Assembly (NCBI RefSeq): GCF_047555085.1
Contig: NZ_CP180230.1
Span: 990,001-1,022,000, forward strand
Length of the DNA: 32,000 nt
Reading direction: 5' to 3'
Source of the DNA: Candidatus Saccharimonadota bacterium
GTDB lineage: Archaea; Nanohalarchaeota; Nanosalinia; Nanosalinales; Nanosalinaceae
Every line of letters starts with the position of its first letter. Position 1 is the first letter of the stretch. The notes under the pieces were generated by a model that was not told the DNA's origin, ran no database searches, and saw nothing but the letters and a program-made list of their open reading frames with translations. Positions 1-32,000 of this stretch are shown here, one piece after another. Made by a program: the position numbers and the translations under genes.

Positions 1-531
1 CTGGATGGAGAGGAAGTTGACGCAGTAACCGATAAACAGGCCTTTCTGAACAATTACATCGACAGTATACACGGAAAAGACGTTTCTCCAGAGGAGAATG
101 AATCAGAAAATATCGCCTATGAAGCCGGCAGATTACTTGGAAGAGAACTTGATACCGAGATAGTAAGTGGTTACATGCAGGACTTCGTGGATATCGCAGT
201 CGAAGAGGACAAATCCAGTAAAGAAGGATACAAAAGCTACAGCAGAGGTATAAGCGCCTCAATAGGAGAATTAGTGGGAATGGCACTGACAGATCTTGAT
301 GACTTCGAGGCCGATGCAGACATACTCAACTTTGCGTACGACTTCGCATACCTTGGACAGGTAGCAGATGATAAACTGGACGCCGATACAGGCCTTGGAG
401 ACGATATAGATGAGTTCTACAGAGAAGCACAGGAAAGAATTTCAAGACATGGAGCCACCGGAAAGTTCATGGAGAAGGCCTCAAAAGTTTATCCACAGCT
501 ATACCGAGGCATGAAGGCCCTGAGAAAGTAG
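1..531 (+). CDS. hypothetical acidic protein, 5' end outside window
   Basis: Frame 1 is open from base 1 (LDGEEVDAVTDKQAF...) and runs into tracked ORF 175..531. It is D/E-rich like its neighbours. No motif recognised. Confidence 0.55.
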   Translation: MDGEEVDAVTDKQAFLNNYIDSIHGKDVSPEENESENIAYEAGRLLGRELDTEIVSGYMQDFVDIAVEEDKSSKEGYKSYSRGISASIGELVGMALTDLDDFEADADILNFAYDFAYLGQVADDKLDADTGLGDDIDEFYREAQERISRHGATGKFMEKASKVYPQLYRGMKALRK

Positions 532-532
532 T

Positions 533-1210
533 CTACTGTATGCCGAAAACAGCGTTCCTGTACATCTCACCTGCTCTATTATTAAACTCTTCTGCATCTA
601 CCTGTAGAACTTTCCCTCTCTCATCGTCGACAGAGTAAGAGACAAATCCCATATCAGGGCCTATATCTTCGCTCCAGCCGAGATAGACTCCTAATTCGCT
701 GCCTTTCATCTCCCATTCTATATGGATTTCCTCAATATTTTCTGCAACATAGCTTTCAGGCCTGTAAACAATATCTTCGGGAGTAATCGCATCTTTCTCT
801 GCCAGTTCATCCAGAGTTTTTTCCACGAAATCCGGCGCATCTATATCCCGATCATTCTGCTCCAGTTCTTCAGGATCCAAGAGATTGTCCTCGTAAACTC
901 TGGACGCCTCCTCGAAGTCTTCTCCGTTTCTTACAGATTCTGCCACATTGGAAATTCTTTCATCAACGGAGAAATTTTGCACACGATCCGCTAAATCTCT
1001 GTATACATCGCCGTTCTCATGCAGATAATTCATCGTTCTGTGGACATCAGAGGCCTCTACTCCAAGAGTTTCAGCGACATCCTCCGAGTCCAGGCCTCTA
1101 ACTTCATAATGCTCAAACACCTGGATCAACGGCAGAAAATTTTCTTCATCAATCTGCAGAAAAACATCTCCATCCTCCTCAACTATCGCGTCAAACTTTT
1201 CCCCGCTCAT
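533..1210 (-). CDS. hypothetical acidic protein, possible N-terminal helix-turn-helix
   Basis: 225-aa ORF with an ATG start, very acidic. The segment SEDVAETLGVEASDVHRTMNYLHENG looks HTH-like. It is convergent with the previous gene, with a 1-nt spacer. A/T box TTTTTAA (minus strand, 1236..1242) lies 26-32 nt upstream of the ATG. Confidence 0.6.
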   Translation of the reverse strand: MSGEKFDAIVEEDGDVFLQIDEENFLPLIQVFEHYEVRGLDSEDVAETLGVEASDVHRTMNYLHENGDVYRDLADRVQNFSVDERISNVAESVRNGEDFEEASRVYEDNLLDPEELEQNDRDIDAPDFVEKTLDELAEKDAITPEDIVYRPESYVAENIEEIHIEWEMKGSELGVYLGWSEDIGPDMGFVSYSVDDERGKVLQVDAEEFNNRAGEMYRNAVFGIQ

Positions 1211-1327
1211 CTAACTCGAACTTGAGATCCTAAAGTTAAAAATTTGGAGAGAACAGGCCTCTGAATAGAAAAATAGATGTAGAACGTGCGTATATGGAAA
1301 ATTAAATGAGAAGGATATGAGAATTTT

Positions 1328-1585
1328 TTACAGGCCTTCGGATACAATCACAAAGTCTCCGATGGACTTGACTGCGGAGAAAGGTACGATCGTACGGCCC
1401 TGAGAGTCTTCCTGCAGGTGCTCCTCGTTTAGATGGTCTGTGGTCTGGCTTACCAGGATGTTCATCAGTTCGCCAGTATCTGCGACGAATGATACGTCTT
1501 CAACATTTCCGTACTTCTTTCCGTGTTCTTCTGATACGATTGTCTTTCCGATTATTTCAGTTCCTCTCGGGTGATCTTCAGCCAT
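1328..1585 (-). CDS. PRC-barrel domain protein (small, stand-alone)
   Basis: 85 aa. The pattern IIGKTIVSEEHGKKYGNVEDVSF...GRTIVPFSAVKSIGDFVIV is typical of archaeal single-domain PRC-barrel proteins. Confidence 0.8.
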   Translation of the reverse strand: MAEDHPRGTEIIGKTIVSEEHGKKYGNVEDVSFVADTGELMNILVSQTTDHLNEEHLQEDSQGRTIVPFSAVKSIGDFVIVSEGL

Positions 1586-1636
1586 TTTTTGTGCACCTGT
1601 ATTTACTTATTGATGGATGCAACATTAAAAACTTGT

Positions 1637-2173
1637 ATGGCGCGAGTCTTCTCCGCGGTCGATATAGAAGATGAAGACGTTCTCGATCAACTGGAAAAAA
1701 CACAGGAGAGGCTGAATCTTGGATTCAACACGGTGCCACGCGAAAAAATGCATATCACTCTGGAGTTCTTCGAAGATGTGAACGAAAAACAGATAGACAA
1801 GATAAAGCGATCGATCAGGAACATCCAGATAGACTCTTTTCAGGCCTCTATCAACGGAGTTGGCGCTTTTCCTTCAGAGGATTACATGCGAGTTGTATGG
1901 GCGGGCCTCAAAGCTCCAGAGATTTTCCGGCTGAAGAAACAGGTTTCAACACACGGCGTCACAAGCCAGGATCAGAACAGCTTCACGCCACACATAACGC
2001 TGCTGCGTGTACAGGACATAAATCCGAAGCGAAAGAGAAAACTACAGAAACACATAGATGAATACAGAGAACATAGCATAGCAGATTTTGAAGTAAACAA
2101 AGTGAAACTTTTCGAGAGCGTTCTGACTGAAAACGGCTCTAAATACAGAATACTGGAGGAGAAAAAACTGTGA
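1637..2173 (+). CDS. thpR: 2H-phosphoesterase: RNA 2',3'-cyclic phosphodiesterase / 2'-5' RNA ligase family
   Basis: Two H-x-T-x motifs (HITLEF and HITLLR) at the expected spacing. I start at ATG 1637 (MARVFSAVD...) because the longer tracked ORF (1571) overlaps the divergent PRC gene. Confidence 0.85.
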   Translation: MARVFSAVDIEDEDVLDQLEKTQERLNLGFNTVPREKMHITLEFFEDVNEKQIDKIKRSIRNIQIDSFQASINGVGAFPSEDYMRVVWAGLKAPEIFRLKKQVSTHGVTSQDQNSFTPHITLLRVQDINPKRKRKLQKHIDEYREHSIADFEVNKVKLFESVLTENGSKYRILEEKKL

Positions 2174-2499
2174 AAGATATCGGACTGAAACTTTTCCTGG
2201 CCTCCACAGGCCTTGTAATACTTGGATTCTCAGCAGCTCAGACACCTCAAACACAGAAAATAGGAAGTATCGAGGCCTCAGATATAGGCGAAAAAGTGGC
2301 TGTAGAGGGAGATATATCTGATGTCTACAGTTCTGGAGAGGCCTGGTTCATGGAGATAAGCGACTCTACAGGCAGCATTTCCGGCGTCTCATTCTCTGGC
2401 AGCGGCTTCACATCAGGACAGGCTCTTCTTGTAGGAAGAGTTGAGATGTACGATGGCGATTTACAGCTGGTGATTGAAGACGCTTCTGTAGCACCATGA
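2170..2499 (+). CDS. membrane-anchored OB-fold protein
   Basis: GTG start overlaps the thpR stop (GTGA). It has an N-terminal hydrophobic helix (LKLFLASTGLVILGFSAA). This is followed by an OB-like pattern VAVEGDISDV...FMEISDSTGSISGVSF...GQALLVGRVEMYDGDLQLVIE. Confidence 0.55.
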   Translation: MKDIGLKLFLASTGLVILGFSAAQTPQTQKIGSIEASDIGEKVAVEGDISDVYSSGEAWFMEISDSTGSISGVSFSGSGFTSGQALLVGRVEMYDGDLQLVIEDASVAP

Positions 2500-2500
2500 G

Positions 2501-3223
2501 TCAACACGAGGCCCTGTAGGAAACGATTACAGAAGCACCGAAGACAGCAAGGCCTAGATTTGAAGGAATCTGAAGTCCGAACTGCGATAAAGCGATCAGC
2601 GTGAGGACAGCTGCCCCTCCTCTTCTTATGTAATGAAGGTTCAGCGATGAGCTATCTACATAAGCTGCCAGATACAGTGCTGCTACTGCTGAAAGAGATG
2701 TCAGAAGAGCAGGAACTATGTAAGATGCTGTAAGGGCTAAGGCCTGAGGACTTTTTATCGAAAGTACTGCACCTGTCAGTATTATAGCTGGGACAGGGAA
2801 AAGCTTGGCTTTTTCCATTCCAAGCATGTTAAGTGCTATAGACAGTAATGCCAGGCCTGCAACAGTTCTCATCATCTCAATATAGAATATTTGCTCGAAT
2901 ACAGGTGCTACTAAAGATGTTACCAGTGCTCCAGCCACAAGCACAGGTGCTGCTTTTGCAACTGTTCTTTTTGCTTCTTCTACCGTTTCAGAAGTCGAGT
3001 AAAGAACTGCAAGAGCTCCTGCACCAGTAAATATCGTCAGCGATACTGCTATTATATCTGAGAAAGTGGATACTGCTCCGCTGACAAGCAAAGTGGCGAA
3101 TACTCCATCTATCAATGGGAGACATAGTACAGTTACAAGTCTGCGCGTATCCTCATCGAAGAAATCAAGCATTTGCCCTGAAGCGCCACTAGTTAACGAG
3201 TCCAGATCCATGAAGAAAGACAC
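2501..3223 (-). CDS. polytopic membrane protein, unknown function
   Basis: 240 aa with about 6-7 hydrophobic helices. The GTG start is at 3223; an alternative ATG is at 3211. No catalytic motif recognised. Confidence 0.65.
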   Translation of the reverse strand: MSFFMDLDSLTSGASGQMLDFFDEDTRRLVTVLCLPLIDGVFATLLVSGAVSTFSDIIAVSLTIFTGAGALAVLYSTSETVEEAKRTVAKAAPVLVAGALVTSLVAPVFEQIFYIEMMRTVAGLALLSIALNMLGMEKAKLFPVPAIILTGAVLSIKSPQALALTASYIVPALLTSLSAVAALYLAAYVDSSSLNLHYIRRGGAAVLTLIALSQFGLQIPSNLGLAVFGASVIVSYRASC

Positions 3224-3438
3224 CGGGAAAACGCGCGGGACTCTGGACGATTAATTCCAGATAAACTTGGTCCCATTAAACATGAACTTTGACGACATAG
3301 TGGCGACTGCGCCCGTAGAGAAAACTGTTTCAACGCAGTAATCCGTCGCCATACAGTACTAAAACACTTGAACCATTATAAATCTTTCTTGCTTCCTCGG
3401 GATTACGTTTAAACAGGTTGCCGGAGAAGAAGTTTACC

Positions 3439-3816
3439 ATGATAGGCCTATTACTGCTGGCGATCGCAACAGTACCTTTCATCGACATATACATACTGGT
3501 GCAGATAGCAGGGATGATCGGCTTCTGGCAGACACTAGCACTGATCCTTCTCACAGGAGCTGTAGGCCTGGAAATCGTCAGAAGAGAAGGGATATACGTC
3601 CTTGTAAAGATGCAGAGATCAGTTACTGCCGGAGAGGCCTCAAGAAACGCACTTGAAATAGGATTCCTGGTGCTTGCAGGCCTTCTACTGATCCTTCCAG
3701 GTATCGTAACAGATGTAGCTGGATTTTTGCTTGTCTTCAGGCCTGTACGTGAAAGACTTGCTGCAAAATACAGCGGTGAAGGATTCAATGCAGAAGTAAG
3801 AACTTTTGGAATTTAA
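3439..3816 (+). CDS. fxsA: FxsA family membrane protein
   Basis: FIDIYILVQIAGMIGFWQTLALILLTGAVGLEIVRREG and LLILPGIVTDVAGFLLVFRPVR match the conserved FxsA blocks. The ATG at 3439 is preferred over the TTG at 3418. TTTAAA at 3408..3413 lies 26-31 nt upstream. Confidence 0.8.
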   Translation: MIGLLLLAIATVPFIDIYILVQIAGMIGFWQTLALILLTGAVGLEIVRREGIYVLVKMQRSVTAGEASRNALEIGFLVLAGLLLILPGIVTDVAGFLLVFRPVRERLAAKYSGEGFNAEVRTFGI

Positions 3817-5298
3817 CTATCTTTTATCATCGTTCAATCGATCTTGAAGCTCTGCAACGTTTCTCCTGAGACTCTGCATGCGGCCTTCAACGTTCTCCTC
3901 CCTCTGATGTACTCTTCTGATCTCTCTTTCCATCTTCCGGGCCTCTCTGCGCTCAATCACGTAAACTATCGCCACAACAAGCACAATAAGTGCAGCCACT
4001 GAACCAATTATGTAAAAAATCAGGTCTGATGAGTTGTCTTCGACCTGTAACTGTTGCCGTCTCCCTCCTATGCTGAAAGAGGCCTCTCCTGGTTCTACTT
4101 CTGTCTCGAAAGTTACAGTTCTGGTTTCTCCTGCTTCAAGAGATTCTGTATAAGTTTTTACAACTTCAGATCCCTGCATCAGATCGAAAGTTTTCTCACC
4201 AGCAATATTCCCGTTATTCGTTATAGAGGCCTGTACGCGGACTCTGGAAGTATTGGCTATCTGTTCAACTTTCATATCTGTTACCTGTAAATCTGCTCTT
4301 TCAGGAGGCTTCTCAGGAACACCTATTGCATATGATCCCGGTCTGAAATCTGCACTGTAGCGGTAGCTGTCAAAGTTCTGTGAGAGGAAGTTAATATCTA
4401 CATCACGCCACGAAGTGGAGGCCTGTCCCTTCAGGAATACATCTTCAGTCGACATCTGATCTTTGGAATCCAGCCAGGATTTATCGACTTTGAGGCCTAA
4501 CTCTCCGCCGCTGTAATCGGAGACTCCTGAAAGACTAACTACAATGTACGAGTATGCTCTGCCCGAATTTACTGAAACTCCTGCAAGAGGTGCGTCGCTA
4601 GTTGATAGCTCCATAGACGCATCCCTCACCGGCTCCTGTGCTGTGAAGCTGAGGCCTGTAAGGGACTTGCTGTTCTCCACAGTTACTACAAGCCTCTGGC
4701 CTCTTGATAGGGATCCTATGTCGACATCTGTGGCGCCGTCAAGAGTCACAGTTATACGTTTCGTGTTTGGTGGGGACAGAGATCCTGATGAATCGTTCTC
4801 GGAATCATTTTCCTGTGTTTCGTTGTCGTCTTCAGGCGGCAGGAAACCACCGCCGCCTCCGCCTCCAGAAGAACCGCCTCCAGAACTACCTGAGTCAGTT
4901 TCTTCCTCATTCTCTTCTTTGTTCTCTCCTGTATCCTCTTCAGTTTCATTGGATCCATCTTCTGCACCGGATTCGCTGAAATTACCGGCGTAATCGAGAT
5001 TTTCTGAAGCACCAGACACTATATCAATAAATTCAGAAGTATTCGATCCATTGACGAACATATAGGCCTCTTCTCCGCTCTCACCGGAAATTTTCACATC
5101 GTAGTATCCACTCGAATCAGTAGAGGTCTCTCCAACAATATTATCAGTCCTGAAACTTACATCCAGTCCTTCAACAGGATCGCCGGTACTGTATTCTGTT
5201 ATCTCTCCATATACCCTATGAGGCATCTCTGGCTGTGAAAAAGCGGGCGATGCCAGTAAAAACAGAAGTGTAATCAGAAAAACGTGCCGAGTATTCAA
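3817..5298 (-). CDS. membrane-anchored surface protein: signal peptide, carboxypeptidase-regulatory-like domain, acidic Gly/Ser linker, PGF-pre-PGF-like domain, CARDB-like domain, TM helix, charged cytoplasmic tail
   Basis: The TTG start preserves the signal peptide MNTRHVFLITLLFLLASPAFS. VYGEI...GYYDV is a CarboxypepD_reg-like pattern. KVDKSWLDSK...VFLKG...WRDVDI...YRYSADFRPGSYAIGV fits the PGF-pre-PGF pattern. LQVTDMKVEQ...ITNNGNIAGE...LEAGETRTVTFE fits CARDB. The C-terminus has helix LIFYIIGSVAALIVLVVAIVYVI followed by a 47-aa R/E-rich tail. Confidence 0.8.
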   Translation of the reverse strand: MNTRHVFLITLLFLLASPAFSQPEMPHRVYGEITEYSTGDPVEGLDVSFRTDNIVGETSTDSSGYYDVKISGESGEEAYMFVNGSNTSEFIDIVSGASENLDYAGNFSESGAEDGSNETEEDTGENKEENEEETDSGSSGGGSSGGGGGGGFLPPEDDNETQENDSENDSSGSLSPPNTKRITVTLDGATDVDIGSLSRGQRLVVTVENSKSLTGLSFTAQEPVRDASMELSTSDAPLAGVSVNSGRAYSYIVVSLSGVSDYSGGELGLKVDKSWLDSKDQMSTEDVFLKGQASTSWRDVDINFLSQNFDSYRYSADFRPGSYAIGVPEKPPERADLQVTDMKVEQIANTSRVRVQASITNNGNIAGEKTFDLMQGSEVVKTYTESLEAGETRTVTFETEVEPGEASFSIGGRRQQLQVEDNSSDLIFYIIGSVAALIVLVVAIVYVIERREARKMEREIRRVHQREENVEGRMQSLRRNVAELQDRLNDDKR

Positions 5299-5301
5299 TT
5301 T

Positions 5302-8300
5302 TTAGCCACCTCCATCGACCACAGGCTCAGAATAAGATGCTGAGTCCCCTTCCCAGTTCAGCCAGTAGGCCTCTCCAGGACTCATTTCTCCAGGACTATT
5401 TCCTGTGCTGTCTCTTACAGTATCTACCTGTCGGCTCCCTGCACTTGACTGTTCGTAAACAGTGTCGACATGTGTAGTGTCCAGTGCTCCAAATGCTCCT
5501 GTCTCGGAGTTATCAGCCGGTACCGTATGCTCCTGGAAAGTTCCAATCAAATTGTAGCCATTTGCAAGGCCTGTACTGGCATTTGCAAGATCTCTGCCCG
5601 TCATATGAGTTCTTACGGTATTGACGTTTGGATTCAACACGAAATCTTCTGAGGCCTTTATCATGTATCCTACTCCTCCTTCAAATTCAGTGAAATCGTT
5701 CTGTGAGGCCTCTGGATCATATGTCTGCCATTGGCTGTTCCTGTAAGTCCATACAACATCTATCTTGGAAGTATCGATAACTTTCTCGATTGCAGGAGTT
5801 GTCTCATCAGCTATCGGGAAGGAGACAAAGTTCCATCCCTCGACCATCTGCTTCCTGAAGCTGTTAACGGTTACATTGTCTGAGGCCTCCAATACTGCCG
5901 TGTTGCCGCTGGAATCTGTGATATTAGTTATACCTGTTACATTAGGACTGTTTCCTGTTGGCAGTATCTCTCCGTATTCAACTGTGTGTAGCTGTGCTGA
6001 ATCTGTGTTCTGGAACGCCAGTGCTTTACTGGAGAGATTGATCTGTTCTCTATCACCCTTCACCGGCTCGCTGAATCTTACATTGACGAAAGTGTTGGCG
6101 TAGGAGCTCTGTCCGTGATTTATCTGGGCGTTAAGAAGTACCGGATTTGTGGTGTCAACTGTTCCTGCGAAAACCTGTTCCTCGTCGATAGAGTTTCCGC
6201 TGGAGTCACGGATCGCCTCAGAGAACATTGTAACTGAAGGACTGCTGTCCGTGCCTCTTTCACTGCTTATCTCCAGATCAAGCTCCGAGTCATCAGATTC
6301 TCCTGAAACCACGCCCTCTACTTCACCGGCATCTCCTATGCTGAATGAGTCAGGGAGAAGTTCCGAGGCCTGATCATCAAGAGGCTCAGTAAAGTTCAGG
6401 CCTATCCTGTCTATCCTTGCATCCCTGTTATCGTCTCCAGTAGTTGCATTAAATATTACAGGTGCAGCCATATCTGCAAGAGTTCTATTGAAATCATTCA
6501 AAGTATTACCAGAGTTATCTACAACTGCATCGGCCTCGTAATCAAGGAACGGCTCACTTTCCTTAACACCAGTGATGTTTTCATCTGCGGAGGCCTCAAG
6601 TTCAAGAGTATCATTGTTTCCTGCGGTTCCGGAGTCAACTGTGAGGCCTGAAAGTTCTTCTTCAGTGACGTTCCAGTCATCGCTGCTGAATGCACTGTAA
6701 CTTATGTTCTCAGAGAAGTTCAGCTCTATAAGATCGACTTTTCCATCCTCATTGACGTCTCTGTAGACCTGTGTCTCCAGCTGCGGCTTGAGCCCATCCT
6801 GCGCGTACACAGAGTCATCGCTTCTGCTGTTAGCAGCATTGTCCTGAATGAATTCTCCTTCAGCGATTTCAACATCGAAAGTCTTGTTCGTCTGAACAGA
6901 CTCGTTCAACACAAGCACTATGTTGTTGCCATCCACCATGTTGGTGTCATCCGGTCCTAACGCCGAGTCCACAAGCAGGTCCTCTCCAACGATATTGAAT
7001 CTGCCTGGAGTGATATGGCTACCGTAGTCAAGGCCTGAATACTGCTCATTCGTCTTGACAAATACTTTAGACGTGGCAGTACTTTCCCCGCCGTTTCTGT
7101 TACCTGTCCAGGCCTCTACAAGTTCAGGTGCATGTCCATCGATCACCTGTACATCCTCGCTAGTTACAGTTCCGACAGATCCTCCTGCAAGAGAGATCTG
7201 TGACGTCTCTCCCTTGAAGCCGTGCAGCATATCACCTAGATCGCCTGCTGGCGCTGAATCAAACTCCACGGAGAACTTTGTATCATTTGTTATATTCTCG
7301 GAGACTCCTGAGCTCCATTTGAGGCCTCCATCGTATCCAAGTACTCCAACTTCTTCCCTGGTGTCCTCGTAATGCCTGTAGACTCTGAGGCCTGAATTTA
7401 TCGCCGTATCATTTGCTTCTGTGAAGAATTCAGGATAATCTGCAACATCGACTACGTTGCTTATCTCAATATCCTGTACAACGTTCTGGTAGACTCCGTT
7501 TCGATCAGTATCGTTTACTATCTTCTCTCCGTCGGAATAAGTTGCAGCAGTGTGTCGCGTTGAATCTGCAAAGTTGAATATTTCCTCACCATCGAATGAG
7601 TCCGAGGCGGATCCGTTTGTAACCAGCTCTACTTCGAGAATATCCTCTCCAGCGTTGTATACTCCTTCGTCAGCACCGGAGCTCTGTGAATCAAGGAACA
7701 CTGTTTTCTTCATCCCGGTCTCATTCAGAGATCTGTTGAAGTTCTGTAGATTGCCTTCAAACTCAGTATACACGTAATCATCAGAACCGGAAGTATCTGC
7801 CCTATCCAGCGATCCTTTACGCAGCAATCCGTCACGTCCTGCATCATGAACCAGAGGATCAACAGCAGGATCGAATCCTGTCGATCCCGTCTCCATATAC
7901 TTTGTCTCGGCCTGAAGAGCTGCAAAACCAGCGCTACCAGGAACTATTACATCGCTCCCGTCACCGAACCCGTTAGTGGCGTCTACGATGGCTTCACCTT
8001 CCTCGTACTCTGTAGAATCATCACTGTCGAAGTATCTTATGTTGCTGTCAAATCCTGCTGAAGGCATCCTTCCCTCTCTTATAATATCATCTGTATCGTT
8101 CAGGAACTCATCTGTCGTGGAAATCAAGGCCTCTCGTCCCTGCTCGTTATCTGAAAGCCTTCCTATACCTGCATCGTAGACATCCTTATTATTTCTATCA
8201 AGTGCTGCAACATTATCAGAGGCTGTGAAACTGTCAAGTACAGCTCCCTGATCAAGATCACCTTCCTCAACAGTACCGTTACCTGTATCCTTATCGCCTA

Positions 8301-9936
8301 ACTTCACTGTAGAGTTCCAGTGTCCAAGCCTGACATCGCCCGTGGAAACCTGGCCTGTATCATTCATCGCAACGTAGAGGCCGTCCTCAAAGACACTGTT
8401 CGAGGACGTGTCGACGTCCCAACGGGAAATATTTCCAAGAGTATCATTGTAATCATCAGAGATCAGAGTTCCTGCCTCACCTTCAGGCCCAAGAACGACA
8501 TAGTCCTGAGCAGAGTCAGAAATATTCAGAACAACCTGATCTCCAGCAGTGTAATATCCGTCCTCATCCGTATCATTGTAGCCTAACTCTCCTGATTTCG
8601 TGTAGTTCCCGGCAGGAGAATCAGTACTGTCAACATCGCTCTGCGTGAACTCTGTTCCAACAGAGGCCTCTACAGTACCGTTATCAGGATCCTGATTGTA
8701 CAGAAGGATATCGCCCTCGCTAAGGCCGTCGTCTTCTGTGTCATAGACAATGACGTCCTGATCAACGCTGTCTCCTGGATTCCAGGAGCCTGTGCTGGAG
8801 CCGTACTCAAGCACTCTGAAACTTCCACCACTGTAAACACTCAGGGATTTCCCGAGATCGTTCGTCTCAGGATGACTGTCAGAACTATTCATTACTGAAA
8901 GCAGATTCAGGCCTAGAGATATCCCTGTGGAAGAAGGCCTTGAAGAGACATCGTAGTTGCCAAGCCGGATATCGGAAGCGTTAACGTAGTTATTATTTTC
9001 CTGACTGTAGTATATCGGATCTCCGGACGTGAAAGCGCCATCGCCCTGATCTGCGTAAAGTAAAGTCGTCTCATTGGCCCACAGAAGATCAGCCTTTCCA
9101 TCCCTCTTGATGACATCGCCGCTTCTCTCAAGAGTATCATCCTTACTTCCCTCCTCACGCACTATAGCGGAGGAAGCAACGAATCCTATCTGTGAGCCGT
9201 TCTGCTCCAGATATCTCGTCGTATCGGCCTCAAACTGGCTTGGATAGAACTCCGATCCAAGATCAATCACTCTATCACTGCTGTCAAGCACGTTATCAGA
9301 GCTATTCACAAGAATCTCCGTTCCATAAACTCCTCCATCAAACTGTCCATTGCCGTTTGACTCCACGTACCGGACATCACTGTGAAGAGTCCTTGAAGAG
9401 AAGTTACCTGAAGCCAGTACCTCGGCACTTCTGTCAACGAGGCCTGAATCAGTACGCAAAACTATCTCTCCGGCGAATCCTGCTGTAGAATTATTTCCAT
9501 CAAAAACACTGTTGTTATCGACACCGCCATCCAAAAAGTAGACATCGGAAGAAAAGTTCGCTATCGCAGTACTGTTCAGCACAGAGGCCTTATCGCCCAC
9601 ATGCTCACGTACAACTCCAAGAATGTCCTCTCCATCACCGTATCCGTTGAGGCCTTTATCCTCTCCGGACTGATTCAGGAACATCGTACTGTTATCCTCA
9701 AAACTGTAGACAGCAGCTCCCGGTACAGGCGATCCCGAAATATTTTCGTCGCCCCCATAAGTAATATTGAAACTGAAAGCACCAACACCGGTAGAATCAG
9801 GCTGAACTGTCTCATCATTAGCCATTCCATCTCCAAGAGGAGTTATCGACGTCCCTGAAGCCAGGCCCGTCAGAAATACAGCTAAAGCTAAAACATAAAG
9901 TACATCAGCGATGTCCGAATTTTCTCTCGCTTTCAT
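5302..9936 (-). CDS. giant (1544 aa) acidic secreted surface protein, S-layer or adhesin candidate, with no recognisable membrane anchor
   Basis: Single uninterrupted ORF with an ATG start and signal-like N-terminus (VLYVLALAVFLTGLASG). It has more than 40 N-x-S/T sequons by eye. Degenerate D-x-[DN]-G-x-[YF]-x-x-G-[DE] repeats recur. The C-terminus has two GWNFVSFP...GYM / GYNLIGTF...AYWL modules. There is no C-terminal TM or PGF-CTERM. Confidence 0.85.
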   Translation of the reverse strand: MKARENSDIADVLYVLALAVFLTGLASGTSITPLGDGMANDETVQPDSTGVGAFSFNITYGGDENISGSPVPGAAVYSFEDNSTMFLNQSGEDKGLNGYGDGEDILGVVREHVGDKASVLNSTAIANFSSDVYFLDGGVDNNSVFDGNNSTAGFAGEIVLRTDSGLVDRSAEVLASGNFSSRTLHSDVRYVESNGNGQFDGGVYGTEILVNSSDNVLDSSDRVIDLGSEFYPSQFEADTTRYLEQNGSQIGFVASSAIVREEGSKDDTLERSGDVIKRDGKADLLWANETTLLYADQGDGAFTSGDPIYYSQENNNYVNASDIRLGNYDVSSRPSSTGISLGLNLLSVMNSSDSHPETNDLGKSLSVYSGGSFRVLEYGSSTGSWNPGDSVDQDVIVYDTEDDGLSEGDILLYNQDPDNGTVEASVGTEFTQSDVDSTDSPAGNYTKSGELGYNDTDEDGYYTAGDQVVLNISDSAQDYVVLGPEGEAGTLISDDYNDTLGNISRWDVDTSSNSVFEDGLYVAMNDTGQVSTGDVRLGHWNSTVKLGDKDTGNGTVEEGDLDQGAVLDSFTASDNVAALDRNNKDVYDAGIGRLSDNEQGREALISTTDEFLNDTDDIIREGRMPSAGFDSNIRYFDSDDSTEYEEGEAIVDATNGFGDGSDVIVPGSAGFAALQAETKYMETGSTGFDPAVDPLVHDAGRDGLLRKGSLDRADTSGSDDYVYTEFEGNLQNFNRSLNETGMKKTVFLDSQSSGADEGVYNAGEDILEVELVTNGSASDSFDGEEIFNFADSTRHTAATYSDGEKIVNDTDRNGVYQNVVQDIEISNVVDVADYPEFFTEANDTAINSGLRVYRHYEDTREEVGVLGYDGGLKWSSGVSENITNDTKFSVEFDSAPAGDLGDMLHGFKGETSQISLAGGSVGTVTSEDVQVIDGHAPELVEAWTGNRNGGESTATSKVFVKTNEQYSGLDYGSHITPGRFNIVGEDLLVDSALGPDDTNMVDGNNIVLVLNESVQTNKTFDVEIAEGEFIQDNAANSRSDDSVYAQDGLKPQLETQVYRDVNEDGKVDLIELNFSENISYSAFSSDDWNVTEEELSGLTVDSGTAGNNDTLELEASADENITGVKESEPFLDYEADAVVDNSGNTLNDFNRTLADMAAPVIFNATTGDDNRDARIDRIGLNFTEPLDDQASELLPDSFSIGDAGEVEGVVSGESDDSELDLEISSERGTDSSPSVTMFSEAIRDSSGNSIDEEQVFAGTVDTTNPVLLNAQINHGQSSYANTFVNVRFSEPVKGDREQINLSSKALAFQNTDSAQLHTVEYGEILPTGNSPNVTGITNITDSSGNTAVLEASDNVTVNSFRKQMVEGWNFVSFPIADETTPAIEKVIDTSKIDVVWTYRNSQWQTYDPEASQNDFTEFEGGVGYMIKASEDFVLNPNVNTVRTHMTGRDLANASTGLANGYNLIGTFQEHTVPADNSETGAFGALDTTHVDTVYEQSSAGSRQVDTVRDSTGNSPGEMSPGEAYWLNWEGDSASYSEPVVDGGG

Positions 9937-9955
9937 CTAGATCAGTACCTTTCCG

Positions 9956-9961
9956 AATTTA
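9956..9961 (-). promoter_or_regulatory. TATA-like box upstream of the giant surface-protein gene
   Basis: The minus strand reads TAAATT about 20-25 nt upstream of ATG 9936, consistent with a leaderless or very short-leader transcript. Confidence 0.3.
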
Positions 9962-10284
9962 GGCACACTACCGAGGCACAGTTCAAAGGCCTCAATAGTT
10001 CCTGGTCACTAAATAATGGGCCTAGCTGGTTTAAAAAATCACTTAATACGACAGCCATCAAAAAAGCCAGAAACACCTGTTGTTACCAAAAAGTATAAAA
10101 AAGTTTACTGTGATAGTTGTGTTACGGGTTGGCTACCCGAAGTGAAGCAACCTCTCTTCGACTCTTGTCAAACTTCATCTGTAGAAGAGGGGAAGATAAC
10201 TTGAGGGGGATCAACAGGGAGCGAGAGCTCCCCAAACAGGCCCTCCACAAAAATTTCCAGGAAAAATTTCTCCACAGTGCAGAA

Positions 10285-10290
10285 TTTAAA
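10285..10290 (+). promoter_or_regulatory. TATA-like box for tRNA-Thr
   Basis: TTTAAA lies 36-41 nt upstream of tRNA position +1 (10326), which would give a short 5' leader. Confidence 0.35.
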
Positions 10291-10325
10291 GAGTAAAGGC
10301 CTACACTACAAACACAGCGAAAAAG

Positions 10326-10478
10326 GCCTCGATGGCTCAGCTTGGTAGAGCGGTCCCCTCGTAGGCGTGGTTACTCTCGAGCCGGACGCAACAAGTCCAT
10401 CCAAAGAATGGCTTCCGGTATTGCAGCAAACTACACAGAGCTAGGGACAGATCCCGGGTTCAAATCCCGGTCGGGGCT
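10326..10478 (+). tRNA. tRNA-Thr (anticodon CGU) interrupted by a 79-nt intron
   Basis: Cloverleaf read by eye. Acceptor is GCCTCGA/TCGGGGC (one G-U). D arm is GCTC-AGCTTGGTA-GAGC. Anticodon stem is GTCCC/GGGAC with loop C-T-CGT-A-[intron]-A. Variable region is AGATC and T arm is CCGGG-TTCAAAT-CCCGG. Discriminator is T and no CCA is encoded. The mature length would be 74 nt. Confidence 0.85.
10364..10442 (+). other. tRNA intron at the canonical 37/38 position
   Basis: A bulge-helix-bulge can be drawn. C32-U33-C34 pairs with G10440-A10439-G10438, plus one G.A mismatch. Three-nt bulges TA|G and CT|A flank this helix. An outer helix GCGTGG/CTACAC has 5 of 6 pairs. An internal hairpin GCCGGA...TCCGGT is present. 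There is no TGATGA or CTGA box. Confidence 0.7.
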
Positions 10479-10619
10479 AAAAATTTCTCTTCCTGAAGAC
10501 ACCTAGAATTTATCCTGTGAAAAAATTCAGGAAGATGAGCTCCTTAACCTATATAGCCGGTTTTTGCGGGCCTAAAACCTCAAAAGAATTTTTTAATTAA
10601 AAACGCATAATTAGATCTT

Positions 10620-11417
10620 ATGAATTTATTTTATCGGCGGGTAAAATGGGTTCTTACTTTTCTGATCTCATTGCTGGCTGTCGTTCTCATACAGCAGATA
10701 AGTCCAAGCAGCTCTACTTCAGGTGGCATAAGCAACCTGGCACGAGTAGCAATTCTAGTTATGGGGATGTCGATACCTTTCTATACCGTCCGCACTTACA
10801 GACTGAAGAATCTGTGCGAAAATATTTCCGATCTTGATGAAAAAGAACTAGGCGAACTAAGACCAGGACTGAATGCTGTGAACGTGTATCTTGAATCAGA
10901 AAATCCTGTAAAAGCACCTATATCAGGCAATAACGTGGCTTTAGCTAAAGTCACCGTCAACAGTTTCAATTACTGGTCAATATTCGCTGAAAGAATCCTG
11001 GATTACAGCAGACTATTCCTAAGTAACGGGAGAAACAAGATAGCATTTTCTGTAGACCAGAACTGTAGAATCAAAATGCCTGGATTCGAAGAGGAAAGTG
11101 ATTACGTTTCGGGCCTAGGATCTCCAGAGGATAGCGTGAAACAGTTCGAGCAGAAAAACAGCGTAAACAACACTTCGTTCCGGCGCGGCTACGTTGAAAA
11201 AGGAGTCAAAAATAGCGAAGATCTGACGATCATCGGAGATTTCGAAGAAGGGAACAACGGGATACAGCTTACATCTTCAGAAAAACTTCCGGCAATAATC
11301 AGCAAAAAAGGGCTGAGCCAGCTGACTGAACACTACAAAAACAGGAAAAAACGGAATGCTGCAATCACATCCGTCCTTATCATAGCAGTAACTGCGGGAA
11401 CACTACTCCCGCTATAA
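10620..11417 (+). CDS. membrane protein (two N-terminal TM helices, one C-terminal TM helix), unknown function; weak resemblance to the GIDE-type architecture
   Basis: 265 aa with an ATG start. By my count it is net basic (about 31 K/R against 26 D/E), unlike the neighbouring acidic proteins. The GIDE-like call rests only on topology and on the pattern LRPGLNAVNVYLESENPVKAPISGNNVALAKV. Confidence 0.6.
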   Translation: MNLFYRRVKWVLTFLISLLAVVLIQQISPSSSTSGGISNLARVAILVMGMSIPFYTVRTYRLKNLCENISDLDEKELGELRPGLNAVNVYLESENPVKAPISGNNVALAKVTVNSFNYWSIFAERILDYSRLFLSNGRNKIAFSVDQNCRIKMPGFEEESDYVSGLGSPEDSVKQFEQKNSVNNTSFRRGYVEKGVKNSEDLTIIGDFEEGNNGIQLTSSEKLPAIISKKGLSQLTEHYKNRKKRNAAITSVLIIAVTAGTLLPL

Positions 11418-11448
11418 CAACATCCTTGTAGAGGCCTCTAAAACGAGA

Positions 11449-11856: not shown

Positions 11857-11902
11857 GAATTGAAGATTTGTGGATCTCTGTATAAAAAATGCTTCAAAGT
11901 AT

Positions 11903-13158: not shown

Positions 13159-13212
13159 AGGCCTCAACAACGAGATTAAAAGTTATAATTTTCCCGGAAG
13201 AAAAGCTTTAGT

Positions 13213-17105: not shown

Positions 17106-17141
17106 ATCAACGGAATCGCAGAATATTTTTCATAGAGGTTT

Positions 17142-19067: not shown

Positions 19068-19068
19068 T

Positions 19069-19248: not shown

Positions 19249-19339
19249 GTAGAGAGATTTAATTCGGAACTGTAAAAACGTAGCGGTGAGTTACAGGAAA
19301 TCCGAAATATTTTTCCCGGATGCGGAAGAAATACCAGTT

Positions 19340-20400: not shown

Positions 20401-20435
20401 TAAAACAGAGTTTCCTGATTAAAAATTATTGGCCT

Positions 20436-21728: not shown

Positions 21729-21794
21729 GGAACACACGGATATAGAAGAGATCACTACAGCTTAATGATTTTTCCCTATACCTTTGAGACTTCA

Positions 21795-24433: not shown

Positions 24434-26071
24434 CTACTTCTCCATATGTTCAAGGATCTTGGAGTATGCAGGCCTTGTGATAGTTATTCCTACAAGGATT
24501 CCAAGTATTGTTGTAGTTGCGAACTCTGTAATCTGCTGTAGAGATGAAAGAGGGAATGTTGTAGCGAATGCTCCTACTGTAAGCGCCATTGCTCCTACGG
24601 CAATATAGTGCCTTCCAGCGCTGCTTTTGTACTGGCTGTATCCTATCAAGCCTAGTCCTGCTGCTCCCACCATCATTGCAGAGAATCTTGGTGAGAGTAT
24701 TGGCACCATCGCTCCGATTGTGGAGGCTGCAGAAGTGAATATAACGAAGAAAGCTGTCTTCATCCTCTGCTTCCAGTCCTTGACTGTTTTCCTGTCGGAT
24801 TCATCTGTTATAATTATCTGGTCGTCTACTCCCGTACCTACCGCAGCGATTATTCCTGCTATCGCTGAGAGGCTGAGTGTTGCAAAGCTTGTGAACCAAA
24901 GGCCTAGAAGTATGAATACCTCTGAAGCACCCGTCAGGACTATAGGTGCGACAAGCTTTGGATTGCGGTATCTTACAAAGATGAGCACTCCTACAGCGAG
25001 CAGTGCTCCGATTATCGATAGAATTGAAGCTGCCATGAACTGGCCTCCGAGCGAGCTTCCGAGGCTTGATGTGCTGACGATTTCAACAGGCTCTGGAAGC
25101 CTTCCGGACTGAAGTAAGGCCTCGATCCTGTTCATTTCCTCTCTGGCAGCTCCTCCAGAATCTCTTGAGATGGTTATACTTGGATTGGTTATTGTGTTTC
25201 TCTGGAATTCTTGAGATACTGTGAATCCTGTGATGGCTTCGCTGTCGATGAATATCGTCAGTTCTGCCGGGCGACCGTTCTTCATCTGAAGGGAACCGCC
25301 ACCGCTTGCTGAAGGAGACACATCATAATTATTGGCTACATCCATCAGTCTCTGGGCGGACGTCTGTGAAACAGTTAGAGGTATCTGCCCCTGATATGTA
25401 TTCTGTGCTACCTGGCGGACAGCAGACTGTGAAGTCCTTACATTGAGTATATCTGTGTTATCGTAGATCTGGAACTCCATTCTTGTGTATGAACCGTTCT
25501 GACCGGCGTAGTATACTCTTGTGTCCCCGAGCTCCTGATGATCTCCCTGTTCCAGAGTCTTATTGTAGTATTCCAGGCCTGAATCTGTGTAACGACCTAT
25601 ACTTACTGTTGAATCATTGTTCTTGACGAAACGGTATGTATCAGATAAAGTGAAGTTGCCCGAGTCTGAGAAAAGATATGGCATCCGGGCCTCAAACGCT
25701 CCTTCTCGGGAGATAAGCTGCTGCAAACGAGTGTTGTTCTGTTCAGAAGTTGTAACGCTGATTCGATGTCCTGTACCGATGTCTATAGTATTAATAGTGG
25801 TTTCTCCGAATCCTATCTCATTTACACGTGTTCTGAGGATTGATGCGATGTTCTCAACCAGTTCCTCCGATTGATTCTCGGACTGAACCTTTAGAAGGAG
25901 CTGTGAACCTCCAGAAAAGTCTATACCCATGTTATCTTCAAGGCCTGTGAACTCCAGATTGTAGTTGCCGTTGTTCGATGTGTATGTTGGCTGGAGGCCT
26001 GCTACGGAGAAAGCAAGGACTACAAGCAACAGTATTACACGCCATTCCTTGAGCATATTTTTTACGGCCAT
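24434..26071 (-). CDS. secD: protein-export membrane protein SecD
   Basis: 545 aa with an N-terminal TM helix, a large extracytoplasmic domain and a C-terminal 5-TM bundle carrying GTGVDDQIIITDE. It overlaps the secF stop by 10 nt. Confidence 0.85.
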   Translation of the reverse strand: MAVKNMLKEWRVILLLVVLAFSVAGLQPTYTSNNGNYNLEFTGLEDNMGIDFSGGSQLLLKVQSENQSEELVENIASILRTRVNEIGFGETTINTIDIGTGHRISVTTSEQNNTRLQQLISREGAFEARMPYLFSDSGNFTLSDTYRFVKNNDSTVSIGRYTDSGLEYYNKTLEQGDHQELGDTRVYYAGQNGSYTRMEFQIYDNTDILNVRTSQSAVRQVAQNTYQGQIPLTVSQTSAQRLMDVANNYDVSPSASGGGSLQMKNGRPAELTIFIDSEAITGFTVSQEFQRNTITNPSITISRDSGGAAREEMNRIEALLQSGRLPEPVEIVSTSSLGSSLGGQFMAASILSIIGALLAVGVLIFVRYRNPKLVAPIVLTGASEVFILLGLWFTSFATLSLSAIAGIIAAVGTGVDDQIIITDESDRKTVKDWKQRMKTAFFVIFTSAASTIGAMVPILSPRFSAMMVGAAGLGLIGYSQYKSSAGRHYIAVGAMALTVGAFATTFPLSSLQQITEFATTTILGILVGITITRPAYSKILEHMEK

Positions 26072-29783: not shown

Positions 29784-30904
29784 TCTTCCTTGCTGTATCC
29801 CTGGCACTAGGATTCCTGACGACGTTCGTAGGAACACCATATGCCAGGAAATACCTCCTCAGCTCCGGAATATACGGGGTAGATCAGCAAAAGAAGGAAA
29901 AGCCAAAACTGGCGACATCCGGAGGAATAAGCGTAGTCTTCGGATTTATAGTATCGCTTACAGTGTACCTAGGCCTTATATCTTTCTCAAGCGCTCCTGC
30001 CTCGAATATAACTCTGATACTCGCTGCCTTAAGCTCTGTATGCATAATCACGTTGATAGGCCTAGTTGACGACATACACATCAACATAGAGAAGTATGTG
30101 CAGGACGAACTTGAGATAGAGGAGTTTGAACTTGATCTCTCAAATGAAAAAGAAAGTAAAACCCCTTTTGCAAAGATATGGGAACGCATCACAGTATTTG
30201 AGGAGAATGAAAGGGAACAGGAAGTACACCGTGAAGGCCTCAAACAGAACCTGAAAATGCTTTTCGTACTTCCAGCAGCGCTTCCGTTGATCTCCGTAGG
30301 AGCCGGCTCATCAGTAATGACTCTTCCAGTAATCGGGACAATCGAATGGGGAATCCTTTACCCTCTTCTACTGCTTCCGGTAGGCCTATTGTTCGTATCA
30401 AACGTGGTAAACATGCTTGCAGGGACTAACGGGCTCTCCGGAGGGATGAGCCTCGTAGCTTCATTCTATCTTGGCCTCTTCGCGTACCTTAACGGAGAAA
30501 CAGCTGCAATGCTGATAGCATGGAGCCTTACAGCATCACTGCTTGCTTTCATGTACTACAACTTTTATCCTGCCTCGATACTTCCAGGAGATTCTCTAAC
30601 ATACCTGTGTGGTGCAGCACTTTTCGCAGCGATGGTGATAGGAAACATGGAGAAATTCGGCGTATTCCTATTCATCCCATGGATTACAGAGTTCCTTCTG
30701 AAACTCAGAAGCGGATTTCAGGCACATTCCTGGGGAATACTTCAAGATGATGGAAGTCTGAGGCCTCAGCACGAGAAAATTTACTCTTTAACTCATCCGC
30801 TAATGAATAAAGGCCTGAATGAAAAACAGATAACTGTGGCTCTAATGAGTGCCGAGATAGTTATAGGTGCTGTTGGTATTTTGCTTTTCTCGGGGATTCT
30901 GTAA
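29780..30904 (+). CDS. glycosyltransferase family 4 (MraY/WecA/AglH-like polyprenyl-phosphate HexNAc-1-phosphate transferase)
   Basis: GLVDDIH and NMLAGTNGLSGG motifs in a polytopic membrane protein. The start overlaps the aglB stop (ATGA). An acidic insert of about 55 aa follows the DD motif (about 30080..30253). Confidence 0.8.
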   Translation: MIFLAVSLALGFLTTFVGTPYARKYLLSSGIYGVDQQKKEKPKLATSGGISVVFGFIVSLTVYLGLISFSSAPASNITLILAALSSVCIITLIGLVDDIHINIEKYVQDELEIEEFELDLSNEKESKTPFAKIWERITVFEENEREQEVHREGLKQNLKMLFVLPAALPLISVGAGSSVMTLPVIGTIEWGILYPLLLLPVGLLFVSNVVNMLAGTNGLSGGMSLVASFYLGLFAYLNGETAAMLIAWSLTASLLAFMYYNFYPASILPGDSLTYLCGAALFAAMVIGNMEKFGVFLFIPWITEFLLKLRSGFQAHSWGILQDDGSLRPQHEKIYSLTHPLMNKGLNEKQITVALMSAEIVIGAVGILLFSGIL

Positions 30905-30933
30905 AGTTCAAATAGAAGTTTACGGGAAAATGT

Positions 30934-31311
30934 TTATTCCTCGTCTTCTTCACGCTCTTCCTTGTAAGGATCTTCTACGCGCGTGATATCTCCCGGTACG
31001 TAAGGGAACGAGATCTCAAGAATTTTGGCAACTTCGCTATCGATATTCTGGATCTGATGCCTTTCATTCGAACGGATAACCATGGCATTGCCCTTTTCAA
31101 TATCCTTCATATCTTCTTCATGACGGATAACGACGTTACCTTCCTCCAGATAAATTATATCGGCCTGACGCTCGTGATAGGCGTAGGAAGTCATCTCATC
31201 TGCATCTATAACAAGTCTTCTGATTCCTAGCATACCTGTCTGGTCGCCGACATCGACCTGAGTCATGAGAACCTGTTCCTCAAATCCCCAGGGCTTGTCA
31301 ATACGTCCCAT
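30934..31311 (-). CDS. cupin-domain protein (sugar-nucleotide or mannose-6-phosphate isomerase-like small barrel)
   Basis: KPWGFEE...RRLVIDADEMTSYAYHERQADIIYLEEGNVVI...ERHQIQN fits the cupin motifs. The substrate is not inferable. Confidence 0.65.
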   Translation of the reverse strand: MGRIDKPWGFEEQVLMTQVDVGDQTGMLGIRRLVIDADEMTSYAYHERQADIIYLEEGNVVIRHEEDMKDIEKGNAMVIRSNERHQIQNIDSEVAKILEISFPYVPGDITRVEDPYKEEREEDEE

Positions 31312-31336
31312 ACCTACCTTATGGAATTAAAACTTC

Positions 31337-32000
31337 TTATACGTGTTTACTGTAGTACTCCACAGTCTTCTCAAGGCCTTCCTCGAAGCTGTAAGAAGGA
31401 GACCAGTCCAGAAGACGCTGAGCCTTTGAATTATCCGCATTATGCTGATGCACATACTTGTCACGCGGATTTTCAATTCTCTCGGCATCAATATCCGTTC
31501 CCAGAGCATCGTTAAGCTTCTCAACAACTTCATTGAAAGTTACAGGATCACCGCGTCCAACATTGAACACTTCTCCATCAAGCTCATCCTTTCTCTTAGA
31601 GGCCTTGATCAAGGCATCCACAACATCTTCAACGAAGACGAAGTCTCTCTCCTGAGATCCATCTCCCCATATGACAGGCTGCTCATCATCCATCATCTTC
31701 CAGAGGAACTGAGTAACCACGTTAGCATACTTTCCTTTAGCTCTTTCATGAGGCCCGAAAACAGAGAAAAATCTCAGGCCTGTGGTCTCCATCTGATTAT
31801 TGTAACTGTAGGCCTCCGCATACTTTTCACGCGACATCTTCGAAGCAGTATAAAGATTCGAAGGCACAGGATTCTGATCCTCCCTGTGAGGCGGCTCCAC
31901 GCTTCCATACATCGAAGAAGTGGATGCGTAGACAACTTTCTCGACTTCTTCATCCTTTGCAGCTTCAACTGTCTTGATGAATCCTTCGATATTTACTCGC
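31337..32000 (-). CDS. NAD-dependent nucleotide-sugar epimerase/dehydratase (extended SDR), N-terminus outside window
   Basis: The frame is open to the window edge (RVNIEGFIKTVEAAKDEEVEKVVYASTSSMYG...). The catalytic YTASK (Y-x-x-x-K) is present. RFFSVFGP and the C-terminal WSPSYSFEEGL are typical of UDP-sugar 4-epimerases. Confidence 0.85.
   Translation of the reverse strand, partial: RVNIEGFIKTVEAAKDEEVEKVVYASTSSMYGSVEPPHREDQNPVPSNLYTASKMSREKYAEAYSYNNQMETTGLRFFSVFGPHERAKGKYANVVTQFLWKMMDDEQPVIWGDGSQERDFVFVEDVVDALIKASKRKDELDGEVFNVGRGDPVTFNEVVEKLNDALGTDIDAERIENPRDKYVHQHNADNSKAQRLLDWSPSYSFEEGLEKTVEYYSKHV

Follow-up and report, generated by a model that had tools for sequence, protein, structure and literature searches.

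Why should one short palindrome recur about every 230 bp along a chromosome, and what could keep it there? The question is raised by the hexamer AGGCCT in a stretch of 32,000 bp (contig NZ_CP180230.1, positions 990,001 to 1,022,000; this whole stretch is referred to here as the window), for which an earlier reading of the letters, hereafter the original prediction, had tallied about 139 copies against an expectation of about 6. Exact counting revealed 139 AGGCCT sites, corresponding to one per 230 bp or 4,344 per Mb, where 6.4 or 7.6 were expected from Markov models of order 0 or order 1, respectively. The excess of 18-23× is therefore real. Dinucleotide-preserving shuffles of the window (n = 100) contained on average 7.3 copies and at most 14, and none of the 100 reached 139. 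AGGCCT is the top-ranked hexamer of the window, ranks 2-5 are occupied by hexamers that overlap and extend it, and none of the remaining palindromic hexamers lies above about 3× expectation. The accompanying tallies of the core tetramer and its flanks were also accurate, as GGCC occurs 224 times (about 220 predicted) with 62% of copies inside the hexamer (about 6 in 10 predicted), and the variants with one wrong flank number 40 for GGGCCT plus AGGCCC, 15 for TGGCCT plus AGGCCA and 14 for CGGCCT plus AGGCCG.

The outcome of such a comparison depends on the null model. With rising order of the Markov model the expectation increased from 6.4 and 7.6 to 21.5, 58.7 and, at the maximal (4th) order, to 133.9. 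The original prediction was prepared to give up the excess at an observed-to-expected ratio (O/E) near 1 under a model of 4th-5th order, and formally such a ratio is obtained, but the calculation is circular and uninformative because the pentamers AGGCC and GGCCT occur almost only inside AGGCCT (139 of 163 and 139 of 184 copies, respectively). In a codon-aware null, synonymous codons were shuffled across all genes, which keeps the proteins and also the already inflated codon usage. A thousand such shuffles gave 15.1 ± 3.4 copies of AGGCCT with a maximum of 29, compared to 127 observed in coding DNA.

The 139 sites, of which 12 lie in spacers, are distributed evenly across roughly 33 genes of both strands, and the density in individual genes ranges from 2 to 12 per kb. 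Within genes, AGGCCT was encountered in every reading phase, as xxA-GGC-CTx (66 sites), xAG-GCC-Txx (38 sites) and AGG-CCT (22 sites). With the 12 non-coding sites and the result of the codon shuffles, this agrees with the earlier claim that the word is not a codon artefact, and the alternative in which nearly all copies derive from one or two codon pairs in a single phase does not hold. The phase examples given at that time (Q-A-F at 38, T-G-L at 390 and R-P at 13159) are correct, sites do occur in both gene orientations, and the spacer sites listed are non-coding, with position 19122 to be added to them.

We defined as a synonymous opportunity any codon context able to spell AGGCCT without a change in the protein, and as saturation the fraction of opportunities that do so. 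In the window, saturation reached 80% (125 of 157), and at least one opportunity was used in 29 of the 31 genes having any. The corresponding values were 0-20% for 12 other palindromes and 2-19% for AGGCCT in relatives lacking the enrichment. For Arg-Pro, AGGCCT was found in 23 of 28 dipeptides and the dipeptide itself is 2.2× as frequent as expected; Gly-Leu is spelled GGC-CTN in 80 of 95 dipeptides, with an A as the preceding third-codon base in 66 of these 80; and for Ala in the context xAG-GCN-Txx, 38 of 40 codons are GCC, compared to 23% GCC overall. Each of the six positions of the hexamer is the third base of a codon in one of the phases and could be scored wherever the other five match. 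When it was the only free position, the base of the site was present in 65/74, 38/38, 22/23, 65/72, 38/40 and 22/22 cases for positions 1 to 6, respectively (88-100%), and this fixation covers the outer A and T as well as alternatives requiring transversions (C at position 4 versus A, G or T). Non-coding DNA, which amounts to 2,332 nt, holds 12 copies where 0.35 were expected (34×, ln = 3.53), and the log-odds boost at synonymous opportunities in coding DNA is 3.6. A single parameter, an odds advantage of about 35-fold (~e^3.5) for the complete hexamer, thus describes coding and non-coding DNA alike. Clearly, the pressure acts at the level of DNA, on the complete hexamer and on all six of its positions, wherever the protein code allows, and it is strong enough to raise the frequency of the Arg-Pro dipeptide.

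Words that differ from AGGCCT by one letter show an O/E of 2.3-2.8 when the deviation lies at the outer positions, of 0.7-0.8 when it lies in the middle ones and of 0.6-0.7 when it lies at the inner ones, and GGCC with neither flank correct shows an O/E of 0.5-0.65. Flanking nucleotides past ±4 nt have background composition, no flank preference exceeds that for T at position -3 (44%), and the nearer preferences are weak and vary between lineages. A longer true motif was rejected, as 8-mers occur at Markov expectation, and so was a dispersed repeat resembling repetitive extragenic palindromic (REP) or miniature inverted-repeat transposable (MITE) elements, as there is no conservation past the core. 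With flanks at background composition, what is repeated must be the hexamer alone, not some longer element.

SecF as encoded here matches, at 100% identity, a protein of Candidatus Nanosalina sp. VS9-1 (contig of 1.05 Mb), a nanohaloarchaeon of the DPANN group. Two metagenomic contigs with a SecF 87% identical, and with 77% nucleotide identity to the window, have saturations of 84-86%. At this distance 28 of 36 window sites are found at the same aligned position, compared to 24% of all hexamers. In a SecF tree, enrichment (5-22×) appears in three separate nanohaloarchaeal clades. In the first, the window and our loci L081, L203 and L001 stand at 14-22× and their sisters at 2-3×; the second comprises M3_22 (CP046106.1) and L212 (7-8.5×); in the third, L216 (19×), L213 (9×) and L215 (5×) are accompanied by a nested L211 at 1.9× and the sister loci L209 and L210 at 0.4×. 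Values of 12-22× were obtained for L081, L203, L001, L216 and L283, the last of which belongs to the cultivated Ca. Nanohalovita haloferacivicina BNXNv (CP107255.1, 1-20924) and has 66 sites in 20.9 kb versus 5.4 expected (12×) with a saturation of 64/89 (72%). AGGCCT is near expectation in the other nanohaloarchaea and in every locus examined from more remote DPANN lineages and from methanogens. The trait is lineage-specific, patchy and graded within the Nanohaloarchaeota, and in several lineages the force behind it is still at work or was so until recently. An attempt to polarise site gains and losses with the help of less-enriched relatives was abandoned, since at about 70% identity these are too divergent for a decay spectrum.

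Outside the archaea, one viral contig (L142; IMGVR_UViG_2791354938_000002, 1-11862) has 26 AGGCCT in 11.9 kb versus 2.8 expected (9×), in all phases and with 53% saturation. It is a structural module of a Firmicutes-type siphovirus whose terminase is 52% identical to terminases of Lactobacillus delbrueckii phages, and no close relative of it was found. AGGCCT can thus become hyperabundant in an unrelated system, which suggests that a transferable specificity is involved, not a peculiarity of nanohaloarchaea. Other AGGCCT-dense viral contigs from the scan were set aside as mostly chance or satellites; one of them (L186, an IMG/VR contig, 6300-8800) is a 73-bp satellite of TTAGGG runs with a AGGCCTAGGCCT pair, in which the pattern is matched by chance. 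Although filed as viral, L186 resembles eukaryotic subtelomeric DNA. Other palindromes are in moderate excess in two nanohaloarchaeal loci, namely CCGCGG in L003 (JBDGSJ010000038.1; 25 versus ~6.7) and ACCGGT in L011 (JALIDO010000010.1; 11 versus ~2.2), and these might be candidate alternative iterated palindromes. CTGCAG, at 5-10× the first-order expectation in L045, L047, L055 and other Woese- and Pacearchaeota loci, was rejected as a parallel case, as its excess is almost confined to one phase, xCT-GCA-Gxx with the Ala codon GCA, and is a codon-context effect.

Also, the distances between sites do not follow a random arrangement. In the window no gap between sites is shorter than 22 bp, although 12 gaps of that kind were expected, and 52 tetramers of similar abundance had on average 12.5 of them and never fewer than 4. 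When seven enriched loci were pooled, 2 gaps below 22 bp were found versus 26.6 expected, and the minimum gap was 21-25 bp in 5 of the 7. Synonymous opportunities give the same picture. Where two of them lie 6-21 bp apart in enriched lineages, both were realised in 1 of 26 pairs, whereas at distances of at least 22 bp both were realised in 42-53% at every distance class. Close opportunity pairs are themselves fewer than expected in enriched lineages (27 versus 50) and not in non-enriched ones (63 versus 58.5); examples in the window lie at 27926/27935 and 10860/10865, besides 24648/24654. A second site is not tolerated at less than about 22 bp from the first. Overall, the spacing is more even than random (coefficient of variation 0.80 versus 0.99), and neither a helical (10-11 bp) nor any other periodicity was detected in it except the codon period of 3 nt. 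So sharp a threshold resembles what the steric footprint of a protein of about two helical turns would produce, and not gradual diminishing returns, and it constitutes a new quantitative constraint for any mechanism.

Considering these data together, we favour, with a probability of roughly 0.45, the explanation that AGGCCT is a highly iterated palindrome (HIP) akin to HIP1 of cyanobacteria, which a lineage-encoded factor reads, probably by way of a methyltransferase mark and a second function that give complete sites an advantage. The factor would read the hexamer in duplex form, as a site with two-fold symmetry, and would cover perhaps two helical turns. If HIP1 and the alternate HIPs are a guide, it would most likely be a cytosine methyltransferase with the specificity of StuI (AGGCCT) and probably without a partner nuclease (an orphan). 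A candidate is the orphan Dcm-like SVXNc_0487, to which no motif has been assigned. The methyl mark might then be read in recombination or DNA exchange, in strand-directed repair or in the organisation of the nucleoid. Complete sites would gain a small advantage each, through selection or through gene conversion biased in favour of the marked allele, and over time this advantage could fill nearly all synonymous opportunities. If the determinant is dispensable, as a methyltransferase would be, a patchy and graded distribution with unenriched close relatives is to be expected. Cytosine methylation specific for AGGCCT exists in nature, as Alcanivorax borkumensis SK2 methylates AgGCcT (PMC12128166). 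Sites of restriction-modification (R-M) systems are usually avoided, and in a systematic survey over-representation was rare and amounted to only about 1.4-1.5× (PMC4687349). AGGCCT, at ~20× in excess, does not behave like a target of type II restriction.

Several observations weigh against this explanation. No gene for a methyltransferase, a StuI-like nuclease or a Vsr- or Mig-type enzyme was found among all open reading frames (ORFs) of the window by Pfam, and a motif scan of about 150 kb of related loci revealed no methyltransferase, nuclease, Vsr or Mig either. These searches, like the other results, concern one region of ~32 kb, its orthologues and their flanks, not whole genomes. The only R-M system mentioned in the published description of BNXNv is of type III (PMC10266531). 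The conservation of site positions between relatives cannot tell selection from continuing drive, as both genomes are near saturation. Finally, a methyltransferase that acts transiently does not predict the sharp 22-bp exclusion, and a stably bound protein fits it better.

An unlikely but live alternative, already named in the original prediction, is a sequence for DNA uptake or self-recognition, in which a receptor or the recombination machinery would prefer fragments with AGGCCT and molecular drive would accumulate the word with no need for methylation. The pressure on the whole site and all six positions, its equal strength in coding and non-coding DNA, and the tolerance of outer one-off variants while core ones are drained, as if mirroring the specificity of a receptor, speak for such a system. 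Sites also lie more evenly than random, and even spacing is a known property of uptake signal sequences (USS). In addition, HIP1 is now proposed as an uptake sequence (bioRxiv 2026.06.24.733823; 2024.09.10.611283), and discrimination of DNA sources is documented in hypersaline communities (PMC8443641). However, known uptake sequences are 9-12 nt long, lack palindromic symmetry and occur at about a fifth of this density, a hexamer gives little specificity, and no report of natural competence or of a DNA receptor in DPANN archaea was found in the literature searched. Also, diminishing returns would make the effect of spacing gradual and would not give a sharp cut-off at 22 bp. A related and likewise doubtful possibility is that AGGCCT serves as an archaeal 'self' tag, read by a protein and possibly methylated, about every 200 bp. 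By such a tag a host-dependent nanohaloarchaeon might tell its own DNA or that of its kin from the DNA of its haloarchaeal host, in DNA exchange, recombination or nucleotide scavenging. If true, Archaea would have their first system of uptake or self-recognition sequences, and HIP1 would have a counterpart of independent origin.

Another live alternative, likewise named in the original prediction, is a dense array of binding sites, in which an abundant dimeric sequence-specific protein with a role in the nucleoid or in segregation would have one site per ~200 bp selected and its footprints would not overlap. The exclusion below about 22 bp recurs in independent lineages, the scarcity of close opportunity pairs is confined to enriched ones, the site has dyad symmetry, and the enrichment of half-correct flanks around GGCC with depletion of fully wrong ones indicates graded recognition. 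Against such an array stand the lack of helical phasing, flank preferences that are weak and differ by lineage, and the enrichment of the hexamer in the unrelated Firmicutes-type phage, for which a mobile enzyme specificity is the easier explanation. To our knowledge, no archaeal nucleoid protein has a specific 6-bp site at thousands of copies, and on balance we regard the array as improbable. In agreement with the original prediction, a palindrome carries no orientation, so that a polar signal like Chi or the FtsK-orienting polar sequences (KOPS) is not to be expected.

The original prediction placed first a mechanism that links cytosine methylation to very-short-patch repair, in which a StuI-type 5-methylcytosine methyltransferase would act with a nuclease or glycosylase for T:G mismatches of the Vsr or the archaeal Mig type. 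An archaeal precedent exists in Mig.MthI, a T/G glycosylase paired with a GGCC methyltransferase. The name Mig.MthI is found in PMC2714593. The deamination products of the site are depleted; the transition neighbours AGACCT/AGGTCT are the most affected (7 versus 22.3 expected) and AAGCCT/AGGCTT are affected mildly (15 versus 20), and core positions decay less than outer ones. However, the transversion pair AGCCCT/AGGGCT is as strongly depleted (5 versus 15.5), and the outer A and T (65/74 and 22/22) and transversion alternatives (C at position 4, 65/72) are fixed as strongly as the cytosines. As sole cause such repair is thus insufficient, because repair of T:G mismatches cannot fix outer A/T or transversion alternatives. 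A funnel in which transition repair converts all A-R-R-Y-Y-T words would predict ~146 copies of AGGCCT, but these words are not drained (AGATCT 22 versus 20.5 expected; AAATTT 18 versus 11.6). Over-represented R-M sites in the survey cited above reach only about 1.4-1.5× (PMC4687349). The only glycosylase of the window is an OGG-like enzyme, and it was rejected as the determinant, as it is conserved in enriched and non-enriched nanohaloarchaea alike. Repair of this kind acting alone is therefore very unlikely.

A function at the level of RNA, with AGGCCU in transcripts of either strand as a motif for modification, cleavage or pairing, is highly improbable. Since the word is a palindrome, its presence in both gene orientations does not exclude such a function, and most spacers of a compact genome are probably transcribed. 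However, sites are equally dense in every phase and in spacers, among them places where genes converge (11432, for example), one site spans the 5' boundary of a tRNA, and thousands of self-complementary GC-rich hexamers in mRNA would probably be costly at molar intracellular salt. For HIP1, no evidence of a role in RNA was obtained (PMC5861425). Finally, an artefact of composition, of codon or amino-acid usage, of a longer dispersed repeat or of assembly can be practically dismissed, as the maximal-order Markov expectation and the fact that GGC, CCT, GCC and AGG are common codons in the window are outweighed by the circularity of that Markov result, the synonymous shuffles, the occurrence in three phases and in spacers, the background flanks and the recurrence of the signal across independent assemblies (NCBI, ENA, Logan, JGI).

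The sites and features of the window that bear on these arguments are given below with their coordinates.

Table. AGGCCT sites and neighbouring features of the window (positions count from its first letter).
Feature	Position	Strand	Remark
Phase 0 example, AGG-CCT, Arg-Pro	13159..13164	-	22 sites of this phase
Phase 1 example, xAG-GCC-Txx, Gln-Ala-Phe	38..43	+	38 sites of this phase; ORF open to window start
Phase 2 example, xxA-GGC-CTx, Thr-Gly-Leu	390..395	+	66 sites of this phase
Non-coding sites (n = 12)	1255 (..1260), 9987, 10297, 10324, 11432, 13538, 13586, 14329, 16408, 19122, 24428, 27043	.	12 sites in 2,332 non-coding nt
Site overlapping the 5' end of tRNA-Thr(CGU)	10324..10329	+	Covers the first four bases of the tRNA
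Intron-containing tRNA-Thr	10326-10478	+	Found by Rfam (tRNA, 47.1 bits); anticodon arm carries an insertion of ~81 nt
Sole sizeable gene without AGGCCT, 265 aa, weak GIDE-like Pfam match	10620..11417	+	0/4 opportunities used
Two adjacent synonymous opportunities 6 bp apart	24648..24659	-	Both unused
OGG-like 8-oxoguanine glycosylase, OGG_N and HhH-GPD	15509-16372	-	Pfam

The tRNA-Thr was detected by Rfam and missed by ARAGORN, and its anticodon was read from the sequence as CGU, which corresponds to Thr; the overlap of its 5' end with a site had been noticed correctly before. The gene without AGGCCT adjoins this tRNA and lies within the longest gap between sites (1,108 bp). At 80% usage the probability of leaving all its opportunities unused is ~0.002, and the gene may be a recent acquisition or insertion not yet adjusted to the palindrome pressure. 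Besides SecF, as part of an archaeal SecDF, and the intron-bearing tRNA, the window encodes AglB/STT3 and cell-surface proteins with lectin, CARDB and DUF2341 domains, a set consistent with a DPANN nanohaloarchaeon. Clusters of large predicted surface proteins are located at 3817-9936 and 16413-21755 (-). They comprise a 1,544-aa ORF that has no Pfam match and others with CARDB, DUF2341, C-type lectin, LamG and lamin-tail domains, of which the C-type lectin domain is unusual for an archaeon.

The function of hyperabundant palindromes has been a problem for about 30 years, and nearly all work on it has been carried out with cyanobacteria. The present case brings the phenomenon into Archaea, to DPANN genomes of roughly 1 Mb with few genes to sift. 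Natural on/off contrasts exist among close relatives (19× versus 0.4-2× in one clade), and phylogenetic profiling could pinpoint the gene or genes responsible. With the cultivated BNXNv, methylation, binding and DNA exchange are directly testable. A pressure that fixes ~80% of eligible synonymous choices and shifts dipeptide frequencies matters for models of codon usage, and it is relevant to binning and k-mer taxonomy of hypersaline metagenomes. In cloning work, StuI would cut such DNA, or be blocked, every ~230 bp.

How does AGGCCT compare with known systems? The StuI-type R-M system of A. borkumensis SK2 has the same recognition word, but the whole genome of that bacterium contains only 1,674 copies of AGGCCT (PMC12128166). 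In the Dcm/Vsr system of E. coli and in archaeal M.MthTI (GGCC) with Mig.MthI, cytosine methylation of a short palindrome is tied to a biased repair that protects the core, and in our case, too, variants in the core (GGCC) are the most depleted. They are restricted to T:G mismatches and shift word frequencies only slightly, whereas AGGCCT has all six positions fixed at ~20×, and its bias is not limited to C/T (G/A) transitions at a methylated cytosine. With the USS of Pasteurellaceae and the DNA uptake sequences (DUS) of Neisseriaceae, AGGCCT has in common that a short word is over-represented in coding and non-coding DNA at even spacing; in USS and DUS a drive at the level of sites accumulates the word, and variants reflect the specificity of the recogniser. 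However, USS and DUS are asymmetric, 9-12 nt long, present at ~1/kb and served by known competence machinery, whereas AGGCCT is a 6-bp palindrome at 1 per 230 bp with weak and variable flanks.

The closest counterparts are cyanobacterial. The original prediction knew of no description of such a phenomenon, but precedents exist in HIP1 and in the alternate HIPs (PMC4390886, PMC5861425). Among the alternate HIPs, GGCGCC of Calothrix PCC 7103 (Elhai 2015) is likewise a lineage-hyperabundant hexamer palindrome with an O/E of ~15 or more, and it replaces HIP1; genomes with alternate HIPs are reported to hold a methyltransferase of matching specificity, and high-frequency cyanobacterial palindromes co-occur with such enzymes (PMC4390886). 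They differ from AGGCCT in the word and in the domain of life, and AGGCCT recurs, graded, in three nanohaloarchaeal clades. HIP1 (GCGATCGC) is a short GC-rich palindrome that is 15-300× over-represented (PMC5861425, PMC4390886), whose site positions are conserved between related genomes (PMC5861425) and whose one-letter deviants, as reported by Elhai, are concentrated at outer positions (PMC4390886); when methylated, it boosts transformation and recombination (bioRxiv 2024.09.10.611283; 2026.06.24.733823). AGGCCT shows traits by which a HIP is recognised, being a short GC-rich palindrome at a level of at least ~15× and hundreds to thousands of copies per Mb, with positional conservation above background (28/36 versus 24%) and with one-letter deviants biased to the first and last positions. 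Both words occur in intergenic DNA and, in every phase, inside genes, both have non-random spacing, and both are absent from some lineages of their clade. They differ in length (6 bp versus 8 bp), in host (DPANN archaea versus cyanobacteria), in density (about 4,300 sites/Mb for AGGCCT versus 300-2,700/Mb for HIP1) and in the core, as AGGCCT contains neither GATC nor CGATCG. Also, HIP1 has its cognate methyltransferases DmtA/DmtC, whereas the AGGCCT counterpart is putative. The literature searched contained no report of a hyperabundant palindrome, AGGCCT included, from nanohaloarchaea or from any other archaeon. What is new here, then, is an iterated palindrome of hexamer length in Archaea that is denser than HIP1 and obeys a sharp 22-bp exclusion rule not encountered in the HIP1 literature consulted.

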